From an uncultured Muribaculaceae bacterium (lineage in GTDB: Bacteria; Bacillota_I; Bacilli_A; RF39; UBA660): a stretch of 7,438 nt of DNA. The stretch lies in the NCBI GenBank assembly GCA_964372175.1, contig CAYJPP010000025.1:1-7438 (forward strand). Reading direction: 5' to 3'. Under the pieces are notes generated by a model. That model made no database searches. It saw only the letters and a list, made by a program, of their open reading frames with translations, and had not been told where the DNA came from. The translations under genes were made by a program, and so were the position numbers. Below are positions 12 to 7,438 of the stretch, one piece after another. Position 1 is the first letter of the stretch, and each line of letters starts with the position of its first letter.

Positions 12-111
12 AAAAAAATATTCTATATAAACTTCAATTAAATCTTTTCTTTTTTTCGTTTCTTATAACATCCTCTTCCTTTCTATAACTAGTATATAAT
101 AATAACCTTAA

Positions 112-1341
112 TCAAATCTTAAATTTAATTACAAATTTTGTTTTTTTATTTATCTCACTAACTACGCTAATTTCTCCATTCAATTTATTTACAATACTCT
201 TAGCTATAAATAATCCTAATCCATAACTGTTATTGCTTCTTGATTTATCACTTTTATAAAACCTATCAAATATATAAGGTAAATCATTAGGAGCTATTCC
301 TTGACCACTATTTTCTACCTCAATATATACATTTTTTTTAACTTCATAAACTTTAATCGTAATATTTCCTTTTTCTTTATTATATTTTATAGCATTATCA
401 AGCAATATTTTAATAACTTGTTCTATTTTGTTTTCATCAGTTTGAATTATAACACAGTCATCAATATTAGTTTTAAGTTTGATATTGTTTTCAAAAATCA
501 TTGCTTCAAAAGATAAGCATATATTTCTAATAACTTCCGATAAGTTAACAGAAGTAATATTATATTTATCTTCTTCTGCTTTTGCTGATATTAACAACTC
601 ATTAATTAATTTGTTCATTCCAGATGTTTGATACTTAATATAATCTAACCATTTCGATTGATTCTTAACACAATCATCTCCATTTAATCTTATTGCATCA
701 ATATTAGCATTTATAATTGTTAAAGGCGTCTTCAACTCATGAGTAGCATCTGCAACAAATTGTTTTTGCTTTTTCCATATTGTTTCAACAGGTTTTATTG
801 ATTTATTAGCAAAGTATAAACTGATAAAATAAATAACTATCATCACTACTATACCAACTGTTATTAACATGAATAAAAGAGTGCTTAACACTTGATTACT
901 ACTTGTTATATCTATAAAATTAATTTTATAATATGAATCACCTATAAGATTTTGTTCAGTATCTCTTGGTAAGACAGAAATCTGATACATCCATTCCTTT
1001 TCATCCAGTTCAATTATTCCATTATGATTATCTAAATTAACAACTATTTCAAAATACTCATCATCAACTATATCTAAGCTTGATAATATTTTTGTTAAAT
1101 TAAAGTTTTCATCAGTTAATAACGAAAAGGACGATATATCATTATTAATTATCTCTTTTTCTTGATAAGGATTTCTAATATTTGTGAAATTTATTAGTTG
1201 ATGTCTATTAACTCTTTCTAAATTATCATTGTCAATAAAATGTGCTGTTAAAAAATATATTCCGGTAAAAGAAATCATCATAACAACAGAGATTATTATT
1301 AAATTAATAATTAATAGTTTTCTTTTTAAATCTTTAATCAT
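112..1341 (-). CDS. Membrane-bound sensor histidine kinase (HisKA + HATPase_c)
   Basis: 409-aa ORF. Two hydrophobic TM segments (aa ~9-31 and ~152-177) flank a ~120-aa extracytoplasmic loop. Motifs: H-box ADATHELKTPLT (His201, codon 739-741), N-box LLDNAIKYN, G1 VENSGQGI, F-box IFDRFY, G2 GLGLFIAKSIV. Its ATG (1339-1341) overlaps the stop of the upstream regulator (ATGATTAA, 8-nt overlap). Confidence 0.95.
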   Translation of the reverse strand: MIKDLKRKLLIINLIIISVVMMISFTGIYFLTAHFIDNDNLERVNRHQLINFTNIRNPYQEKEIINNDISSFSLLTDENFNLTKILSSLDIVDDEYFEIVVNLDNHNGIIELDEKEWMYQISVLPRDTEQNLIGDSYYKINFIDITSSNQVLSTLLFMLITVGIVVMIVIYFISLYFANKSIKPVETIWKKQKQFVADATHELKTPLTIINANIDAIRLNGDDCVKNQSKWLDYIKYQTSGMNKLINELLISAKAEEDKYNITSVNLSEVIRNICLSFEAMIFENNIKLKTNIDDCVIIQTDENKIEQVIKILLDNAIKYNKEKGNITIKVYEVKKNVYIEVENSGQGIAPNDLPYIFDRFYKSDKSRSNNSYGLGLFIAKSIVNKLNGEISVVSEINKKTKFVIKFKI

Positions 1342-2014
1342 TTTTTTCCTCTATTATTTTATAACCAATTCCACGCACTGTTTTTATAACAACACCTGTA
1401 GCTAAACTTTCTAATTTTTTCCTTAAAAATGAAATATAAACTTCAACATTGTTATCAACTACAATTTGTTCAATGTTCCAAAGTTTATTAATCATAACTT
1501 CTTTTGCAACAATAGTTTCTGGTTTTTTTAAAAACATTTCTAATAACTGAGTTTCCTTCAATGTCAACGAATAACTCTTATCTTCACAACTAAGTATCAA
1601 ATTATCAAGATTTAATTCTAAATTACTATATTTCAAAACATTTGTAACAATCTCACTACTTCTTCTACTTAAAGTCTTAACTCTCGCTAATAATTCTTCG
1701 CTTTCAAAAGGCTTAGTCAAATAATCATCTGCGCCCATATCAAACCCAGTTAATTTGTCTTCAAGTTCTATTTTAGCGGTCAACATAATTACTGGTGTAT
1801 TAATTTTTTCTTCTCTTAACCTTCTCAATATATTAAAACCATCCATACTAGGCAACATAACATCTAAAACAATTACATCATAACTATTAGTTAATCCATA
1901 TTCTAATCCTTCCAAGCCATCAAAAACTATATCTATATTAATTTTATTTTTTTTAAATATGTGTTCTACTGCATAAGCCATATACTTTTGATCTTCTACT
2001 AATAATACTTTCAT
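1334..2014 (-). CDS. OmpR/PhoB-family two-component response regulator (receiver + winged-helix DNA-binding domain)
   Basis: 226-aa ORF. Receiver signature: E8-D9 acidic pocket, phospho-acceptor D51 in VIVLDVMLP, T79, and K101 in LTKPF. The C-terminal trans_reg_C-like region ends in TVRGIGYKI. RBS GGGAGGT (2019-2025, minus) lies just upstream of the ATG. Confidence 0.95.
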   Translation of the reverse strand: MKVLLVEDQKYMAYAVEHIFKKNKINIDIVFDGLEGLEYGLTNSYDVIVLDVMLPSMDGFNILRRLREEKINTPVIMLTAKIELEDKLTGFDMGADDYLTKPFESEELLARVKTLSRRSSEIVTNVLKYSNLELNLDNLILSCEDKSYSLTLKETQLLEMFLKKPETIVAKEVMINKLWNIEQIVVDNNVEVYISFLRKKLESLATGVVIKTVRGIGYKIIEEKND

Positions 2015-2060: not shown

Positions 2061-2303
2061 TTAAATATTATAAATTATAAAAATATAAACAATTATTAAT
2101 ATAGGAAATAATAAAAAAGTTATTTTTTTTGTTTTATGTCTAAATAATAACATTCCTAAAAAAATTCCAAAGCATCCACCTATTAAACCTAAGATATAAA
2201 ATGTTTTTTCAGAAACCCTTCTTTTCTTTTTTATTGCAAATCTCTTATCTAAATACATTAAAGTAATTGTTATTAAGTTTATTATCATTAAATATAAATA
2301 CAT
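2061..2303 (-). CDS. Small DUF1294-like membrane protein
   Basis: The ORF track gives 2061..2312 (GTG start). An ATG at 2301-2303 is preceded by GAGGTG (plus 2310-2315) at 6-nt spacing, so I prefer the 80-aa form MYLYLMII.... The core DKRFAIKKKRRVSEKTFYILGLIGGCFGIFLGMLLFRHKTKK matches my recollection of the DUF1294 signature (DK..A....R.PE..L..L...GG..G......FRHKT.K). Two to three TM helices. Confidence 0.8.
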   Translation of the reverse strand: MYLYLMIINLITITLMYLDKRFAIKKKRRVSEKTFYILGLIGGCFGIFLGMLLFRHKTKKITFLLFPILIIVYIFIIYNI

Positions 2304-2320
2304 ATTAATCACCTCATATT

Positions 2321-2432: not shown

Positions 2433-2852
2433 ATGAATGGTTTAAAAATTGCAATCATCTCTGTTACTATCTTATTAATCACAACTGGGTGTTTTTCTAA
2501 AACATTAGAGTGTACAATGAATGATGATGATTTCGGTAATCAAACTATGGAGTTAAAGTATGATTCATCAGGAGAAAACTTAGAAACTTTTGAAATGACA
2601 CTCGAAGAAGAATTTGATAGCGAAGATGAAGCAAATGAGGCAGTTAATGAAGGTATTTGTAGTATGATAACAGGTGAATCAGTAACTGGTGTTGTATGTG
2701 AAGCAGAATCAAAAGGTAAATCTGTTGTTATGACTGTTACTTATGATGTAAGTGAATTAAGTGATGAAATGATAAAGGAATTAGAACTTGAAGGCATGAC
2801 TTATGATAACGCTAAATCAGAAGCAGAAAAAGATGGATATACATGTAACTAA
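2433..2852 (+). CDS. Small secreted acidic lipoprotein of unknown function
   Basis: 139-aa ORF with a strong RBS. N-terminus MNGLKIAIISVTILLITTG|C has a charged n-region, a hydrophobic core and a lipobox-like TTGC (Cys20). The mature part is very D/E-rich, with four further Cys (C27, C76, C89, C138). The ending DGYTCN recalls small clostridial YehR/DUF1307-like lipoproteins, but this is from memory only. Confidence 0.85.
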   Translation: MNGLKIAIISVTILLITTGCFSKTLECTMNDDDFGNQTMELKYDSSGENLETFEMTLEEEFDSEDEANEAVNEGICSMITGESVTGVVCEAESKGKSVVMTVTYDVSELSDEMIKELELEGMTYDNAKSEAEKDGYTCN

Positions 2853-3375: not shown

Positions 3376-4914
3376 TTATTTCATTCTTCTGTGATTATCT
3401 TTTTGTTCAGTTTCATAACATAATTTTCTTAATTGATCATCAGTTATGTGAATAACTTTTCCACCAACTGGATTTATCTTCTTACCACCAAATACAATCC
3501 AAATTGCATTCACAGGAGTATTTGGCATTGGAGCTTCACCATCAGTAAATATAATTTTATTTTCTACTCTTTTCGTAAAAGCATTCACAGCAGCATTAAA
3601 GTTGGTTCCTCCACCACCACGATATTCTATGTTATCAATATCATCTAAAGTTCTTACTTCATTCCAGCCATAAAATCTAGTATCAAAACATCCTACTTTG
3701 ACACTTGAAGTTTGAAAAATATTTTTACATTCACGAAGAAAGTTTTTGAGCAAGTTTTCGTGTATTGATCCACTTGTATCTAATAATATCTCTGTTTCTG
3801 GAATAGGATAAGTTTCAAGATTCGGTGTTACAACACCATTATCTATTTCAGCATTAGCAAAAGACCAATCAACATCCATACTTACTGCTTCTCTAAGCCA
3901 TAATCGCCAATCTATTAAGGGCTTACTTATTCCTATATCCTTTATTTCGCGTTTTTCAGAATTAGTTGTACTTCCAGCTACCATAGATTCTCTAGATAAG
4001 GCATCAAGTAATTCTTGTAATTGTTCTTTTCTTGTTTGCTCATTTTTTTTGAATGCTTTTTTTTCACCCATTTCAAATAGTTTTTCTTGTGTTTCTTTTA
4101 ACTTCTCATCAAAAATTTCTTCTTGTGTTTTTGAATTTTGATTTTGATTTTCTTTTTCATCTTCTTTATCAAAACTTTCAGTTTCCTTATATCGTTTAAC
4201 AGCATGCTCCCACATACTATGAGTATCATGTCCTACATCTTCATTATTTTTTTCTTGACCACTATCATTCACACTTCCACTGCTAGAATCATGTTGTTCT
4301 TTTTTTTGTTCTGTGTCGCTAATTTGTGCAGAACTATTAGAAGATTGCTCTTTTTGATCAGTTTGCTCATCACTTTGTGATTGACTATCTTTTGATTCTT
4401 GATTTTGATTTCCTTGTGATTGTTCTTGATTTTGTTCTGAACTATAACCACTTTGTTGTCTAGAAGATTGACTTTGTTGACCATTTTCTTGTTTTGGCTG
4501 TTGTTCTTTTTCTTCTCGTAATAACTTTTCATACAATCTTTCGGCGTCATAATTTAGTGCGTCTTCAATATCCACACCACCCTCAACTAGAGGTAATCCA
4601 TCTTTTTTCAGAAATTGATTTATAACCGCGTCAGTTGCAATATTCCAAAGCCTTGAATCTTTACCCTCACTACGAAGAATATGATTAAAAGCTATATGGC
4701 ATATTTCATGAGCAAAAATAAATGATTGTTCATCACTCGATAATTTACTCAAAAATTCAGGATCATAATATACTGTTTTACCATCTGTTCCAGCAGTTCC
4801 CAAACCCTTTACTTCTTTCAATCTTAAACTTGCCACTGCACTACCAAAAAAAGGATATTTTATTAGCATTTTTCGTTTTATATCATCAATATTAAATGAA
4901 TCTATATATTCCAT
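3376..4914 (-). CDS. Zincin metallopeptidase + VWA (MIDAS) fusion protein with DUF2201-type architecture and a long low-complexity insert
   Basis: 512-aa ORF. N-terminal HEICH (aa 69-73, nt 4696-4710) is followed by NIATDAVIN and, after the insert, GHDTHSMW. The C-terminal VWA fold has an intact MIDAS: ILLDTSGS (D379-S383, nt 3766-3780), GGGGT (aa 433-437) and FTDGE (aa 456-460). RBS AGGTGA overlaps the TAG stop of the upstream gene (8-nt gap). Confidence 0.85.
   Translation of the reverse strand: MEYIDSFNIDDIKRKMLIKYPFFGSAVASLRLKEVKGLGTAGTDGKTVYYDPEFLSKLSSDEQSFIFAHEICHIAFNHILRSEGKDSRLWNIATDAVINQFLKKDGLPLVEGGVDIEDALNYDAERLYEKLLREEKEQQPKQENGQQSQSSRQQSGYSSEQNQEQSQGNQNQESKDSQSQSDEQTDQKEQSSNSSAQISDTEQKKEQHDSSSGSVNDSGQEKNNEDVGHDTHSMWEHAVKRYKETESFDKEDEKENQNQNSKTQEEIFDEKLKETQEKLFEMGEKKAFKKNEQTRKEQLQELLDALSRESMVAGSTTNSEKREIKDIGISKPLIDWRLWLREAVSMDVDWSFANAEIDNGVVTPNLETYPIPETEILLDTSGSIHENLLKNFLRECKNIFQTSSVKVGCFDTRFYGWNEVRTLDDIDNIEYRGGGGTNFNAAVNAFTKRVENKIIFTDGEAPMPNTPVNAIWIVFGGKKINPVGGKVIHITDDQLRKLCYETEQKDNHRRMK
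3957..4515 (-). repeat. Low-complexity Q/S/E/N/K-rich coding tract inside the peptidase-VWA gene
   Basis: aa ~134-320. The first part is EEKEQQPKQENGQQSQSSRQQSGYSSEQNQEQSQGNQNQESKDSQSQSDEQTDQKEQ.... The second part is K/E-rich and heptad-like (KLKETQEKLFEMGEKKAFKKNEQTRKEQLQELLDAL). The DNA shows reiterated TTGATTTTGATT-type short motifs and three A8 runs in the coding sense. Both extra ORFs of the track (4138-4380 +, 4269-4550 -) fall in this tract. Confidence 0.8.
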
Positions 4915-4922
4915 AGTTTCAC

Positions 4923-5324
4923 CTAAATATGAGCCACTAAAGAATAAATCTCTGGTGATATTTTATTTTTATCAACTTTATCACAAGTAATAACAATCGC
5001 ACAATTTTTAGGTAGTTCAAATGTACTTATCTTGCGGTATTTTAATATCTCACAAAATTTCACTTGATCATCAGCCCCAATATTAGTTAAATTATCAATT
5101 ACTAATATATTAACATTCAAATCCTTTTTAATCATCAATTCTTCATACCATTTTGGAGGCATGAAATCTACACCCTCATAGTGTCCGTTTAAAAGTTCGA
5201 CTGCGCAATTAGATGGTATGATCACTGAATTAGGAAGATTTTGCCCAGTTATTCCTTCAACTAAAATAGGAGAGATATTTGTTTTGATGTAAGTATTCAT
5301 CATATTTATTTTTTCTTGATTCAT
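4923..5324 (-). CDS. Small degenerate (P-loop-less) AAA+ core paralogue of the upstream ATPase
   Basis: 133-aa ORF. Its ATG overlaps the ATPase stop (ATGA at 5321-5324), and RBS GGTGG lies 9 nt upstream. It aligns by eye with aa ~315-460 of the 671-aa protein: FMPPKWYEEL with DVPPTWYKKL, ILVIDNLTN with IIFFDEITN, ELPKNCAIVITC with KLPDNARVVAAG, PEIYSLVAHI with EPLFNRFAHVYI. Confidence 0.8.
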   Translation of the reverse strand: MNQEKINMMNTYIKTNISPILVEGITGQNLPNSVIIPSNCAVELLNGHYEGVDFMPPKWYEELMIKKDLNVNILVIDNLTNIGADDQVKFCEILKYRKISTFELPKNCAIVITCDKVDKNKISPEIYSLVAHI

Positions 5325-7336
5325 CGTTTCATCCCACCTTTATAGTCATTTATGTAAAAAGGAAGATCATCGTCATCCATTATTCGATACCCATCACTAT
5401 TCGACTGATCTGCATAAGCTGTTGTATTCCCATCTTTTAAGCGAATTTCTGCTACTTTTTCAATTCTCTTATCATCACCATGTGTCCATAAAGAATCAAA
5501 TATTGTAACTAACTCTGGTTCTAATCTAGAAACAAATTCTCGGACTTTTTCTACATTTTCATCATCTGCATAAGATAAACCCACTGTTGTTGCCCATTTT
5601 TCTGATATATCCATATATAAATCAGAATCATTATATTTATCTGCAATAACATCTTCTAATGTAATTACTTTTTGATTACAAAAATGTACGAAATCTCTTG
5701 TTAAATCATCACCAATTAATGCTCGCAGCATTTCTGGTTGACGAGTTCTATAAAGCATTTTAGAAGCCATTTCCCACTTTCTAGGATCAGCATTAGGCCT
5801 TTTACCAGTATATTGTGAACGAAGTGCTTGATCCCCTTTAAACGCAATATATGCGTATATTGATGGATGAATCTTGCGTTCTTGTTTTTGCTCTTCAAAA
5901 TCTAACTTTTCAACTTTTTTATCAGCTGTCATGGCCCACTTAAGCCAATCTTCAACTTTTGTATTTATATAAACATGAGCAAATCTATTAAATAATGGCT
6001 CTGCAAGTTGATTAGCTGCTAATGAATCATTATAGTCATTTCCTGCTGCTACAACTCTTGCGTTGTCTGGAAGTTTCCAAATCCCATTTACTTCTCTATC
6101 TAAAACAATATTGTACGCCATGCCTTGAATTGCGGGAAGTGCATTTGTAATTTCATCAAAGAAAATAATATTTATTTTATCTGGATTTGCTTCACATTTT
6201 GCTTTTAATTTTTTATACCAGGTTGGTGGAACATCTATCATCTCACCAGTTGCTGGATTATATACACTTTTTCCATTTAATGAATCAGGAGTTGCATTTC
6301 TTAGATAAATTATTTCTAAGTCTGGATCAAGTTGTTTAACCCTTGCACTTTTCCCCTCACTTGACTGACCGTGTAGGAAAACCGCTACACCAGATTCTAC
6401 TGTTCCTCTAATAATATCTTCTTCACTAACACCCTTAAAATCAAAATTATAAGGATTCTTTTTTCTAGCAGTTTCTTGGATTTCTATTCCTTGTTCTGCA
6501 ACTTGTGCTAAAGTTCTAGTTGTTTTTATATCTTTTGAAAAATGATTATCCATAAATCTTTTTATTTCAGTATTTTTAAAATCACCATCATATCTTCCAG
6601 GTTGATTAAATCGCACACCTGCAAATATTCCCCTTTTAGAAACTAACATTTTTGATTGTTCATCAACTAACCATTTAATCGGTTGTACTTCAATCCAAAC
6701 AGTATCGCCAATACTTACCGAAACACCATTAGCAATAGTTGTAGGATTGTTGCATAATGTTTTCACTTCTACGCGAACATATCTTTTTCCATTATATTCA
6801 TATTCTTGATGTTGTTGTGCACGAAAATCTTTGTCATAAGCATCATAATTTCTTGAATCAGTTGTATATGTTTTGCCAGTAGTTTTTATTCCTCGTGATT
6901 GATATTCACGCTCAAGATTTTCACCAAGTCTTTTATCAACTGCTTGTTGTGGGTATTCGCCATATTGAATTTCGGGAACAACACCTACTCCCCTCACTAT
7001 GTTCGGGGAGATTAAAGAGATGTCAGAGTACAGTGAAGCTGGGCGGGCAGTGGCATTTCGTTTATATGGAGAGAGCCAATTACAAAAACCATGATCTAAG
7101 ACAGCGCGAACACACCCATCACCAGCGGAAGATGACGAAAAATAATATCCGGCTCGATCTTTTAAATCGTTCCCCTCTGATGTATGTTGAGCTTCAAATT
7201 TTACAAATCCGCCTAAAAGAATTGAAAAATCGCTTACTGCCATTCTCATACCATATTTTTTTAATATATCTAATTTTCTATCACCGTATAATTGATCATC
7301 AGTTAAAAAAACAAAATCATTTATTTCTTGTTTCAT
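5321..7336 (-). CDS. MoxR/AAA_5-like AAA+ ATPase with a large N-terminal DUF6273-like domain and a helical C-terminal extension
   Basis: 671-aa ORF. RBS AGGTGAGGA (plus 7341-7349) lies 4 nt before the ATG. Walker A is GQSSEGKS (aa 323-330, nt 6347-6370). Walker B is IIFFDE (aa 390-395, nt 6152-6169). Sensor-1-like VVAAGN and Arg-containing PLFNRF are present. There is no signal peptide or TM segment. The N-terminal ~270 aa lack ATPase motifs. The C-terminus has an acidic MDDDDLPFY tail. Confidence 0.9.
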   Translation of the reverse strand: MKQEINDFVFLTDDQLYGDRKLDILKKYGMRMAVSDFSILLGGFVKFEAQHTSEGNDLKDRAGYYFSSSSAGDGCVRAVLDHGFCNWLSPYKRNATARPASLYSDISLISPNIVRGVGVVPEIQYGEYPQQAVDKRLGENLEREYQSRGIKTTGKTYTTDSRNYDAYDKDFRAQQHQEYEYNGKRYVRVEVKTLCNNPTTIANGVSVSIGDTVWIEVQPIKWLVDEQSKMLVSKRGIFAGVRFNQPGRYDGDFKNTEIKRFMDNHFSKDIKTTRTLAQVAEQGIEIQETARKKNPYNFDFKGVSEEDIIRGTVESGVAVFLHGQSSEGKSARVKQLDPDLEIIYLRNATPDSLNGKSVYNPATGEMIDVPPTWYKKLKAKCEANPDKINIIFFDEITNALPAIQGMAYNIVLDREVNGIWKLPDNARVVAAGNDYNDSLAANQLAEPLFNRFAHVYINTKVEDWLKWAMTADKKVEKLDFEEQKQERKIHPSIYAYIAFKGDQALRSQYTGKRPNADPRKWEMASKMLYRTRQPEMLRALIGDDLTRDFVHFCNQKVITLEDVIADKYNDSDLYMDISEKWATTVGLSYADDENVEKVREFVSRLEPELVTIFDSLWTHGDDKRIEKVAEIRLKDGNTTAYADQSNSDGYRIMDDDDLPFYINDYKGGMKR

Positions 7337-7366: not shown

Positions 7367-7438
7367 TAAATAGCGTATTTTTACTAGTGTTTCTGCTTAT
7401 TTTCATACTTTTTTCATTTTATTTAAACTTACTTTTGA

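Follow-up and report, generated by a model that had tools for sequence, protein, structure and literature searches.

In AAA+ machines, catalytically dead paralogues, such as ChlD, the clamp-loader subunits delta and delta′ or AAA5/6 of dynein, usually set asymmetry, docking sites or regulation. The AAA+ module of ChlD does not act as an ATPase but serves to bind ChlI, and in the same chain an acidic linker leads from it to a VWA domain (PMC6604950). In NorQ–NorD, the VWA protein inserts its finger into the pore, where it is bound by the hairpins of the helix-2 inserts, with the pre-sensor-1 hairpin at the subunit interface (PMC13036017), and in CobS–CobT the helix-2 inserts encircle the shaft of CobT, in which a disordered linker joins an M48-like N-domain to a VWA domain (10.64898/2026.07.21.739949). 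A third component is found in the ternary MoxR–vWA conflict systems, which were proposed to work by thresholding with this regulatory component; in the iSTAND type it is an inactive P-loop NTPase (Kaur, Burroughs, Iyer, Aravind 2020, PMC7159879). The remark in the initial annotation of the DNA described here that most MoxR–VWA pairs have no third component was thus incomplete, in view of these ternary systems and of the non-hydrolysing AAA+ module fused into ChlD/BchD.

The DNA analyzed here (the window) is a stretch of 7,438 nucleotides of contig CAYJPP010000025.1, in which a MoxR-like ATPase gene is followed by the gene of a small protein and then by that of a DUF2201 metallopeptidase–linker–VWA protein. 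The small protein can be regarded with high confidence as a dead AAA+ paralogue that is conserved and forms an integral third part of the cassette. Its family is unnamed, is not covered by a Pfam model and is absent from the literature, despite hundreds of members in gut Bacilli. Like ChlD and BchD, the small protein belongs to the helix-2-insert (MoxR/chelatase) clade, and in those two a dead AAA+ module associates with an active motor and acts together with a C-terminal VWA/integrin-I domain and the acidic linker before it, much as is proposed here for the small protein. Whereas the ChlD module is full length with its lid, about 40% identical to ChlI and in one chain with linker and VWA, the small protein is separate, lid-less, 133 aa long and only about 20–26% identical to its motor, and the linker–VWA protein here has an N-terminal HExxH metallopeptidase domain that ChlD lacks. 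With the dead AAA+ and the linker–VWA protein encoded by separate genes, 8 nt apart, the locus is not of the ChlD/BchD type, and the likeness stands as a functional analogy.

The ternary systems likewise combine a MoxR ATPase, a vWA protein and a conserved third component, and share a link to diversification by diversity-generating retroelements (DGRs). However, iSTAND is an inactive STAND NTPase of systems found mainly in multicellular actinobacteria and cyanobacteria, where other components are diversified, whereas the small protein is a lid-less relative of the MoxR core itself: its only sequence relatives are in the neighbouring MoxR-like family, and its structural matches are clade-7/classical AAA+ proteins rather than STAND. 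Precedents are therefore known, and the stand-alone, lid-less form is a variant of them. CobS–CobT, NorQ–NorD and CbbQ–CbbO resemble the cassette in having a clade-7 AAA+ motor and a VWA finger or shaft gripped by helix-2-insert hairpins, but they are two-protein motors without a pseudo-AAA+ subunit, and their ATPases serve in metal insertion or as activases and have no N-terminal ligand-binding domain.

Two further groups bear comparison. A jumbo-phage pair of an ATPase and a metallopeptidase–vWA protein has been noted (PMC7824862), and in phage pairs (N4 gp24-like, phrog_1297/phrog_1314) the C-terminal half of the ATPase and the DUF2201 protein fall into the same PHROG families as here; phage MoxR-like ATPases have no N-terminal variable domain, and a role in virion assembly was proposed for them. 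The window ATPase is about 25% identical to phage ATPases by tblastn. In an N4-like Burkholderia phage a small ORF lies between the ATPase and a DUF2201-like metalloprotease, but this 77-aa ORF, and one of 126 aa in rV5, proved unrelated to the small protein and were rejected as equivalents; phage G gp568 reached only E=0.023 against it, and the related phage ATPase/DUF2201-like pairs that were compared are without it. Fusions of DGR variable proteins with AAA ATPase domains are reported for CPR bacteria, and Midasin-like matches were described by Wu et al. (2018, PMC5758913); they likewise join a diversified ligand-binding domain to a MoxR/midasin-clade AAA+ module in one polypeptide. The cassettes described here differ in their gut Bacilli/Clostridia hosts and in a variable region (VR) near the N-terminus (aa ~70–108), a position called rare by Wu et al. 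(PMC5758913); a companion pseudo-AAA+ or DUF2201 gene is not mentioned in the reports on DGR–AAA fusions that were consulted (e.g., PMC5758913).

The three-gene cassette

The features of the cassette are collected in Table 1. The ATPase matches phrog_1297 ("ATPase") with E=2.5e-47 over aa 307–627, and its Walker A (GQSSEGKS), Walker B (FFDE) and Arg-finger (FNRF) motifs are intact and invariant in its family. NorQ and MCM are the best matches of its AF2 model, with NorQ as the best PDB match; Pfam gave no AAA match for the window protein, and AAA_5 was matched weakly by 9 of 39 family members. The intact motifs, the clade-7 fold and the VWA-like DUF2201 gene in the operon place it among the MoxR-like ATPases. 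The DUF2201 protein carries HEICH at aa 69, a linker at aa ~136–335 and a MIDAS-like DTSGS at aa 379. It matches PF13203 (E=4e-37) and PF09967 (E=3.5e-12), scoring 128.7 and 47 bits where the gathering cut-offs are 23.2 and 26.4, as well as phrog_1314 (E=1.3e-68) and, weakly, Peptidase_M48. With its M48-like N-domain, linker and VWA domain, the protein has the architecture of CobT (10.64898/2026.07.21.739949); a literature search on DUF2201 found nothing relevant.

Table 1. Features of the cassette (nucleotide positions in the window; residue numbers for protein elements).
Feature	Position	Strand	Basis
671-aa ATPase: N-terminal beta-rich domain, MoxR-like AAA+ module, C-terminal helical region	5321..7336	minus	ORF, phrog_1297
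VR-equivalent of the ATPase N-terminal domain (aa ~69–103)	7030..7135	minus	TR alignments from related loci
ATPase AAA+ alpha/beta core (aa ~305–455), segment homologous to the small protein	5972..6424	minus	hhalign, model secondary structure
ATPase-to-small-gene junction	5321..5340	minus	SD-like AAGGTGGG 5333–5340 and ATGA stop/start overlap 5321–5324
133-aa lid-less degenerate AAA+ core protein (pseudo-ATPase) gene	4923..5324	minus	ORF, homology, AF2, Foldseek, family, dN/dS
Small protein, predicted elements, N-terminal part: alpha0 3–15, beta1 20–23, beta2 33–37, helix-2-insert hairpin 48–55			
Small protein, predicted elements, middle: alpha2 58–65, beta3 72–77, alpha3 84–96			
Small protein, predicted elements, C-terminal part: pre-sensor-1 turn ~97–107, beta4 108–114, alpha4 124–127, beta5 131–132			
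Small-gene-to-DUF2201 junction	4912..4925	minus	TAG stop 4923–4925, SD-like AGGTGA 4919–4924, 8-nt gap, ATG 4912–4914
512-aa DUF2201_N metallopeptidase, acidic/Q/S-rich linker and VWA-like DUF2201 domain	3376..4914	minus	Pfam, PHROG, motifs

The small gene is translationally coupled to the ATPase gene, as the initial annotation had proposed: its start codon and the TGA that closes the 671-aa ORF share the sequence ATGA, behind an SD-like site, and an overlap of 4 nt or 1 nt, about half each, recurs in 56 of 63 complete cassettes. On the other side, the gap to the DUF2201 gene measures 9–10 nt in 47 of the 63. Coupling does not fix the stoichiometry of the products. A programmed frameshift that would fuse ATPase and small protein was considered and rejected, as the overlap is 4 nt or 1 nt across the cassettes, i.e., there is no conserved frame relation between the two genes, and the SD-like site precedes the ATG.

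Homology and predicted fold of the small protein

The small protein had been described as a miniaturised copy of the neighbouring AAA+ core, collinear with it throughout, and pairwise and profile alignments, whose failure had been named beforehand as a refutation, were both significant. Composition-corrected BLASTP aligned residues 55–133 with ATPase residues 369–455 (E=5e-7, 26% identity over 87 aa), and the Smith–Waterman score of 87 (small protein 34–133, ATPase 342–455) was reached by none of 2000 shuffles (null 33.3 ± 4.8, z=11.1). Profile–profile comparison with hhalign extended the homology over the whole length, with residues 7–133 aligned to ATPase residues 307–455 (95% probability, E=3.5e-8, 126 columns), and a non-overlapping, divergent set of the small family gave 94.5% and E=7.4e-8. 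The ATPase HMM also matched one member of the small family directly (E=5.5e-6), and when each small protein was aligned locally with its own neighbour, the best-scoring stretch lay in the AAA+ core in 57 of 63 independent cassettes. The motif pairings made by eye reappeared in the hhalign alignment, namely ILVEGITGQN over the P-loop, LNG...PPKWY over LNG...PPTWY, ILVIDN over IFFDE, LPKNCAIVITCD over LPDNARVVAAGN and EIYSLVAHI over PLFNRFAHV.

At this low identity the "copy" holds as paralogy within one family, not as a recent copy. The "miniaturisation" consists mostly of the absence of the lid/helical C-terminal part and of the N-terminal domain; compared with the ATPase, just a few residues are lost from the helix-2 insert and a few from the post-sensor-1 loop. 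Phage G gp566 scored equal to the neighbouring ATPase on one profile and was among the best structural matches of the small protein, but the P-x-W motif that the small protein shares with its neighbour is missing in two of the three phage ATPases that were compared with them, an argument for an origin within the lineage of the neighbour.

The predicted structure pointed the same way. The AF2 model of the small protein (pLDDT 88.5, pTM 0.83) is a compact AAA+ alpha/beta core, i.e., the Rossmann-like fold that had been anticipated, and its secondary-structure elements correspond one for one to those of the ATPase core model. Foldseek matches were almost exclusively AAA+ at a probability of 1.00, with the MoxR class first; CbbQ, NorQ and CHU_0153 were the best PDB matches (query-normalised TM 0.6–0.7), and the clade-7 matches comprised CbbQ, NorQ, dynein and MCM. 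The helix-2 insert that marks clade 7 is present as a predicted hairpin (48–55) aligned with the ATPase hairpin 356–369, and the pre-sensor-1 feature appears in a weaker form, a short strand pair at about 98–103 before beta4.

A resemblance by chance or composition, with the small protein belonging to some other Rossmann-like fold, would agree with the AT-rich genome and with the lack of any match to the small protein in Pfam, NCBIfam, PADLOC or PDB sequences. PDB sequence searches with single proteins and family profiles gave noise only, and PADLOC and NCBIfam yielded no model beyond noise for any of the three cassette proteins. Such a coincidence, scarcely credible, is refuted by the composition-corrected and shuffled alignments, two independent profile comparisons at about 95% probability and a structure search that returned AAA+ almost exclusively. 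The cassette had no megablast match in the phage and plasmid collections, and neither the small protein of the window nor ATPase P0121, which is 100% identical to that of the window, was on record in an exact-sequence look-up.

Lost catalytic residues and conservation in the family

The initial annotation had stated that every catalytic position was lost, and this holds throughout the family, as scored on 113 diverse members. The Walker A pattern GxxxxGK[ST] is absent from the small protein, where the aligned segment is VEGITGQNLPNS, and no G, K or T is conserved at positions 23–32 across the 113 members. In place of the Walker B motif hhhhDE the window protein has ILVIDN; the Asp is 42% conserved in the family, and the position of the Glu is taken by N, G, D or K. 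Sensor-1 is lost (ATPase N433 aligns with D115; K, S, N or D in the family), as is the trans-acting Arg finger (ATPase R451 aligns with L129, and Leu is found in 75% of the family). The C-terminal alpha-helical lid with sensor-2 is absent, and the protein ends at beta5 with residue 133. Walker A and B are intact in all ATPase paralogues of multi-ATPase loci, which limits the degeneracy to the small protein; the Arg-finger pattern F[ND]RF, as searched, was matched by all of these paralogues except those in L079 and L084.

What is retained lies elsewhere. P57, W59, Q87 and F90 are invariant and non-catalytic, and the small protein keeps the pore-side elements, namely the pore-loop LNG and the helix-2-insert hairpin ending in P-x-W, together with the start of alpha3 with its invariant Gln and the pre-sensor-1 turn LP-N. 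The most conserved residues of surface type are found in the elements that contact the VWA finger or shaft in NorQ and CobS.

The family comprises 350 clusters at 90% identity and 297 representatives at 50%; among the 150 representatives listed all are short (nearly all about 120–140 aa, the longest 233 aa), none has the length of an ATPase and none is fused to a linker–VWA protein. The small gene is under purifying selection, with a dN/dS of 0.41 compared with 0.34 for the ATPase and 0.28 for the DUF2201 gene, values that are probably inflated in absolute terms by saturated dS in an AT-rich lineage and were used only for comparison among the three genes. Of the 77 loci from different species that could be assessed, 76 carry the small gene, in each case flanked by the ATPase and DUF2201 genes, and the divergent loci L088–L090 keep this gene order even where the ATPase N-terminus differs. 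The initial annotation had asked whether homologous cassettes always carry it, and an exception is L071, where DUF2201 directly follows the ATPase, which indicates that the pair can exist alone. Mirror-tree style correlations were computed and not counted as evidence of interaction, because all genes in an operon co-diverge.

A functionless remnant of a tandem ATPase-gene duplication might also have lost all its catalytic residues, and a second paralogue is indeed common: at least two long ATPase ORFs occur in 14 of 78 loci, the second often in direct tandem. However, the 297 diverse representatives with a conserved length of about 130 aa, the four invariant residues, the selection on the gene, the conserved coupling signals and the confidently predicted compact fold speak against decay, and this very improbable explanation is effectively refuted by conservation.

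A probable third subunit and a proposed diversified sensor

The best explanation as a whole, and on balance a probable one, is that the small protein serves as a third structural subunit or adaptor of a MoxR–VWA machine. The protein itself is an ancient paralogue of the large (alpha/beta) AAA+ subdomain of the MoxR-like ATPase whose gene precedes its own; it is non-catalytic, has lost the nucleotide site as a whole and is maintained by selection. The machine would comprise three proteins, i.e., the motor ATPase, the pseudo-AAA+ protein and the CobT-like metallopeptidase–linker–VWA protein. The arrangement might be seen as a "split ChlD/BchD", with the dead AAA+ module as a gene of its own directly ahead of the linker–VWA gene. 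The specific mechanism is more tentative, with a probability somewhat short of even: the small protein would dock on the ATPase oligomer through homotypic AAA+/AAA+ contacts and form a fixed nucleotide-free position, a built-in seam, while its hairpins would assist in holding or placing the finger (shaft) of a single VWA partner. We infer the binding to the ATPase and/or the VWA finger, the ring position, the stoichiometry and the effect on ATPase activity. Against a position in the ring is that lid and Arg finger are missing, so that canonical incorporation would disable the neighbouring active site; incorporation of a lid-less protein may be sterically atypical, and the ring position is not assured.

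A brake would suit the retained interface elements and the loss of catalytic residues as well. In this reading the small protein sits at the AAA+ interface of the ATPase and blocks closure of the hexamer or caps the end of a spiral, until it is displaced by ligand on the DGR-diversified N-terminal domains, or by a high local concentration, and the motor is licensed to act on the VWA/metallopeptidase protein. Thresholding by a regulatory third component has been proposed for MoxR–vWA conflict systems (PMC7159879), and the DGR link makes a sensor-type system plausible. The small protein also diverges faster than the motor core (mean pairwise identity 55% versus 80%), so that a peripheral regulator fits as well as a ring subunit. 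However, displacement or inhibition is without evidence, coupled translation from one mRNA offers no obvious means to vary the ratio of inhibitor to motor, and a structural role accounts equally well for the near-obligate presence of the gene; a brake is thus considered unlikely. Alternatively, the small protein could act outside the ring as a holder or decoy, its pore loop and helix-2-insert hairpin binding the DUF2201 finger/shaft or the acidic linker, which would keep the VWA protein soluble, or prevent its protease from acting, until the protein is handed over to the ATPase ring. The conservation of the finger-contacting elements and the location of the gene 8–10 nt upstream of the DUF2201 gene agree with this, but it takes a ring of several hairpins, rather than a single monomer, to grip the finger in NorQ and CobS, and the phage pairs and L071 manage without the small protein, which makes a holder improbable.

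About half of the related loci carry an avd–TR–RT DGR aimed at the N-terminal domain of the ATPase, with an RVT_1 RT and a bAvd-like protein, and in clean cases the mismatches between template repeat (TR) and VR fell at TR adenines (12/12, 14/14, 10/10 and 16/17). An RT, avd and an adenine-specific TR/VR pair are thus found in related loci, not inside the window, which shows only the VR-equivalent; the TRs of five loci (L001, L026, L040, L054 and L069) align there at 60–65% identity with conserved flanks, and any TR or RT would lie beyond position 7438. Based on this targeting in related loci, the most likely reading is that the whole machine would sense ligands in a programmable way and pass the signal through a motor to a protease/VWA output. 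That the small protein represents a class, not recognised so far, of stand-alone, lid-less pseudo-AAA+ subunits, which occupy or cap one position of a MoxR ring as a seam or activation threshold in a DGR-programmed immune-like or conflict system of gut Bacilli, is a rather doubtful extension. If true, the motor would carry a hypervariable receptor in the same chain and act on a metallopeptidase tethered to a VWA domain, and the system would differ in architecture from the ternary systems of the VMAP and iSTAND types.

With its dead module reduced to a bare large subdomain in its own gene, the cassette provides a natural experiment on which parts of the MoxR core serve partner binding and which serve hydrolysis. 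It is also a tractable three-protein case for how MoxR–VWA pairs are regulated and, together with the DGR, looks like a programmable device of sensor, motor and protease. The small family is hosted by Bacilli of the human and animal gut, and the cassettes appear to be carried on conjugative elements and small genomic islands.

The cassette and its partner genes

The 133-aa small protein is encoded in the middle of a tight operon of three minus-strand ORFs, between a 671-aa ATPase and a 512-aa DUF2201 protein. The TGA stop of the ATPase gene overlaps the ATG of the small gene (ATGA), with AAGGTGGG located 8 nt upstream of that ATG; the TAG of the small gene is followed by 8 nt and then the DUF2201 ATG, an AGGTGA spanning the TAG.

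Coordinates of features in the window and of diversity-generating retroelements (DGRs) in two related loci
Feature	Location	Strand	Remark
ATPase, 671 aa	5321-7336	-	ORF
Small protein, 133 aa	4923-5324	-	ORF
DUF2201 protein, 512 aa	3376-4914	-	ORF
Variable repeat (VR) equivalent of ATPase	7030-7135	-	from alignment to related loci
Histidine kinase	112-1341	-	downstream of cassette; overlaps response regulator
Response regulator	1334-2014	-	downstream of cassette
83-aa membrane protein	2061-2312	-	downstream of cassette
139-aa acidic putative lipoprotein	2433-2852	+	downstream of cassette
DGR (bAvd-like gene, template repeat, 338-aa RT)	L001:4055-6409		just upstream of ATPase
DGR (bAvd-like gene, template repeat, 338-aa RT)	L089:2067-4394		just upstream of ATPase

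In the 512-aa protein, Pfam identified a DUF2201_N domain (putative metallopeptidase, E = 4e-37), a DUF2201 VWA-like domain (E = 3.5e-12) and a weak Peptidase_M48 match. Its HEICH (aa 69) and MIDAS-like DTSGS (aa 379) motifs are separated by a 200-residue linker with 44 D/E, 30 Q and 29 S. The phrog_1314 family, which matches this protein (E = 1.3e-68), bears the label “HNH endonuclease”; this looks like an annotation error, because the protein combines an HExxH metallopeptidase with a VWA-like domain.

The ATPase of the window had no Pfam or NCBIfam match, AAA-type Pfam models detected neither it nor the small protein, and AAA_5 was matched weakly by 9 of its 39 relatives; its residues 307–627 matched phrog_1297, “ATPase”. 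GQSSEGKS, FFDE and FNRF are all present and invariant within the family. Despite textbook Walker A/B and Arg-finger motifs, this large gut ATPase family is effectively unmodelled in curated libraries. The structures closest to the predicted model of the ATPase are NorQ and MCM, which makes it a MoxR-like, clade-7 AAA+ protein. The flank varies among near-identical cassettes, as the window carries kinase and regulator genes, whereas HTH genes and a serine recombinase follow the cassette in the close relative L008.

A catalytically dead AAA+ core

The initial annotation had described the small protein as a catalytically dead, miniaturised copy of the adjacent AAA+ core. At the level of sequence this homology is confirmed, and all five of the proposed motif pairings were reproduced by hhalign. 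BLASTP aligned residues 55–133 with ATPase residues 369–455 (E = 5e-7), and the Smith–Waterman score was 87, whereas 2000 shuffles averaged 33.3 ± 4.8 (z = 11.1) and none reached it. When alignments of the small family (37 sequences) and the ATPase family (39 sequences) were compared by hhalign, 126 collinear columns were matched (small protein 7–133, ATPase 307–455) with 95% probability and E = 3.5e-8; with divergent small-family members only, 20–50% identical to the first sequence of their own alignment, the values were 94.5% and E = 7.4e-8. The ATPase-family HMM also matched a small-family member directly (E = 5.5e-6), and when each small protein was aligned locally to its own neighbour, the best match fell on the AAA+ core in 57 of 63 independent cassettes.

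The fold is likewise predicted to be that of an AAA+ core. The AlphaFold2 model is confident (pLDDT 88.5, pTM 0.83) and has the elements alpha0-beta1-beta2-hairpin-alpha2-beta3-alpha3-beta4-alpha4-beta5, which correspond one-to-one to those modelled for ATPase residues 305–455, and a Foldseek search of the PDB returned AAA+ proteins almost exclusively: CbbQ2 first (6l1q, E = 7e-5, TMq 0.67), with NorQ from NorQ–NorD complexes and the MoxR protein 2r44 also at the top, and, lower down, sigma54 activators, dynein, MuB, Lon and MCM. The closest predicted viral structure was gp566 of Bacillus phage G, from the same phage ATPase family that the large ATPase resembles in sequence; the viral matches listed were all much longer (198 aa or more), the great majority of them AAA+ ATPases, with no stand-alone core of ~130 aa among them.

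The loss of catalytic positions proved to be family-wide when conservation was scored over 113 diverse members. None of Gly, Lys or Thr is conserved in the P-loop-equivalent segment (23–32). In Walker B, conservation of the Asp is 42% and the catalytic-Glu position is N/G/D/K; sensor-1 is K/S/N/D, and Leu occupies the Arg-finger position in 75%. Since the protein stops at beta5, the lid subdomain is absent, and with it sensor-2. What the same 113 members conserve is P19, L45, P57, W59 (97%), L74, I76, Q87 (96%), K89, F90, K95, Y96, P105, N107 and I110. These residues map to the pore loop, to the base of the helix-2 insert, to alpha3 (its loop and start), to the pre-sensor-1 turn and to strands of the core; the ATPase family has P-x-W, LNG, Q and LP-N among its own invariant residues.

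The only detectable sequence relatives of the small protein are phrog_1297-type ATPases. A broad family HMM scored the neighbouring ATPase at 23.1 bits, phage G gp566 at 17.3, a Burkholderia phage ATPase at 12.4 and rV5 at 4.3, whereas a narrower HMM placed phage G (18.6 bits) above the neighbour (13.8). P-x-W is common to the small protein and the neighbour family, and absent in the phage G and Burkholderia phage ATPases. At 14 loci there are at least two long ATPase ORFs, often in direct tandem, with Walker A/B kept in every copy. The small protein is concluded to be an old paralogue that probably arose from the ATPase lineage via tandem duplication and truncation; the idea of a copy of the neighbouring core holds as paralogy within one family rather than as a demonstrated recent or direct copy.

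Conservation of the small gene and its proposed role

A word-indexed search found 350 clusters, all of ~130 aa and either unnamed or “hypothetical protein”, mostly from gut Bacilli MAGs. At 50% identity, an exhaustive profile search gave 297 family representatives, of which 176 had E ≤ 1e-10; the 150 best-scoring are without exception short proteins. Over the same genome pairs, dN/dS was highest for the small gene (0.41), followed by the ATPase (0.34) and DUF2201 (0.28), and mean pairwise identities were 55% (small protein), 80% (ATPase core) and 61% (DUF2201).

Seventy-eight loci were compared: 77 lie in reference genomes that represent different species, and the last is on an IMG/VR contig. 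The small gene was present in 76, always between the ATPase and DUF2201 genes. One exception (L076) is cut at a contig end; the other, L071 (2139-5665), the only assessable case, truly lacks the gene: a 698-aa ATPase is directly followed by the DUF2201 gene, and the small-family HMM matches only the ATPase core. The presence of the small gene in homologous cassettes is nearly, but not strictly, constant. One locus, L081, is a decayed copy. Among 63 complete cassettes, the stop of the ATPase gene and the start of the small gene overlap by 4 nt in 28 cases and by 1 nt in another 28, and the gap to DUF2201 is 9–10 nt in 47. Gene order is identical in the divergent members L088, L089 and L090, and as L090 keeps it despite a different, shorter ATPase N-terminus, the small gene travels with the AAA+ module.

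The small gene was not found in phage relatives of the ATPase/DUF2201 pair. The sole hint of a phage counterpart is phage G gp568 (L007:5334-5762), an ORF of 143 aa that lies two genes downstream of the ATPase gp566 and whose match to the broad small-family HMM is marginal and not significant (E = 0.023, 8 bits). One divergent small-family member has an atypical context on a 3-kb contig (L091:231-3012): two small-family paralogues (156 and 139 aa) are followed by a 133-aa ORF that is unrelated and then by an AAA_14/DUF4143 ATPase, and the contig has no DUF2201 gene.

Homology, fold, catalytic loss and the 76 loci together support the central interpretation of the initial annotation; they mark the small protein as a conserved paralogue of the AAA+ core that is dead and lacks a lid, and its gene as the integral third member of a MoxR-like ATPase/metallopeptidase–VWA cassette. 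In NorQ–NorD, the VWA finger lies inside the pore, bound to helix-2-insert hairpins, its tip intercalating at the ring seam; the pre-sensor-1 hairpin is found where subunits meet, and the post-sensor-1 loop binds the C-terminus of NorD (PMC13036017). In CobS–CobT, six helix-2 inserts encircle the CobT shaft and are themselves surrounded by pre-sensor-1 inserts; in CobT, a disordered linker of ~90 residues joins an M48-like N-domain to a VWA domain (preprint 10.64898/2026.07.21.739949), a layout that the DUF2201 protein shares. The small protein has kept pore-side and interface elements and discarded the nucleotide site, of which the most economical reading would be a non-catalytic subunit or adaptor of the ATPase–VWA machine, one that would contact the ATPase oligomer and may help to position the VWA finger. 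The main rival explanations are a brake, with the small protein capping ATPase protomers until triggered, and a holder, with it binding the VWA protein alone. As a subunit or adaptor, it would resemble a split ChlD; in ChlD, an N-terminal AAA+ module that lacks ATPase activity accounts chiefly for ChlI binding and precedes an acidic linker and a VWA domain (PMC6604950).

As third gene of the cassette, the small protein is a variation on known themes, namely the ChlD-like dead AAA+ partner and the ternary MoxR–vWA conflict systems, in which third components include an inactive STAND NTPase (PMC7159879). A jumbo-phage MoxR plus metallopeptidase–vWA pair has also been reported (PMC7824862). A lid-less pseudo-AAA+ companion is not described in these papers, in the chelatase and NorQ–NorD papers, or in the DGR studies PMC10907252 and PMC5758913.

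Retroelements and ATPase paralogues in related loci

In L001–L004 and L089, a protein of 193 aa that gives a weak bAvd-like match and a 338-aa RVT_1 reverse transcriptase (RT) precede the ATPase; a DGR is likewise found in many of L010–L087, and the RT in 29 of the 58 related loci that could be assessed. A repeat of 80–103 nt in the avd–RT gap matches ATPase aa ~70–108, in the N-terminal domain, and in clean cases nearly all mismatches fell at template adenines (12/12, 14/14, 10/10, 16/17 and 11/12). Over all alignments, spurious ones included, 259 of 440 mismatches were at A, against an A content of 34% (p = 2e-26). Such adenine-directed mismatches to an avd–RT repeat are a DGR signature, with the ATPase N-terminal domain as the target in these loci. 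Upstream of the ATPase start the window extends for only ~100 nt, and a DGR template would fall beyond that edge. DGR links of ternary MoxR–vWA conflict systems (PMC7159879; PMC10907252), CLec–AAA ATPase targets in CPR bacteria (PMC10907252), and Midasin-like matches, together with the observation that N-terminal VRs are rare (PMC5758913), have been described. Some ATPase relatives have a DUF6273 or Fib_succ_major match in this domain.

Two to four ATPase paralogues with intact Walker motifs occur at L019, L045, L058, L060, L075, L078, L079, L082 and L084; roughly half of these loci have them adjacent in tandem, the others in repeated cassettes, and adjacent paralogues have one small gene and one DUF2201 gene in common. 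At L078, three paralogues match one template. In five of six pairs compared, the motor/C-terminal halves are 93–99% identical and the N-domains 43–74%; the L058 pair is identical throughout. Near-identical motors with divergent N-domains and a single small and DUF2201 gene suggest several DGR-targeted receptor variants, and possibly mixed ATPase rings.

As to genomic setting, the avd–RT–ATPase–small–DUF2201 module of L089 (1-12405) forms a compact inserted island, with rpsF-ssb-rpsR on one side and, on the other, a DHH-family gene and then rplI-dnaB; that of L001–L004 instead belongs to an ICE-like element that carries a VirB4/TraG-like ATPase, a CHAP hydrolase, a PemK toxin and serine recombinases.
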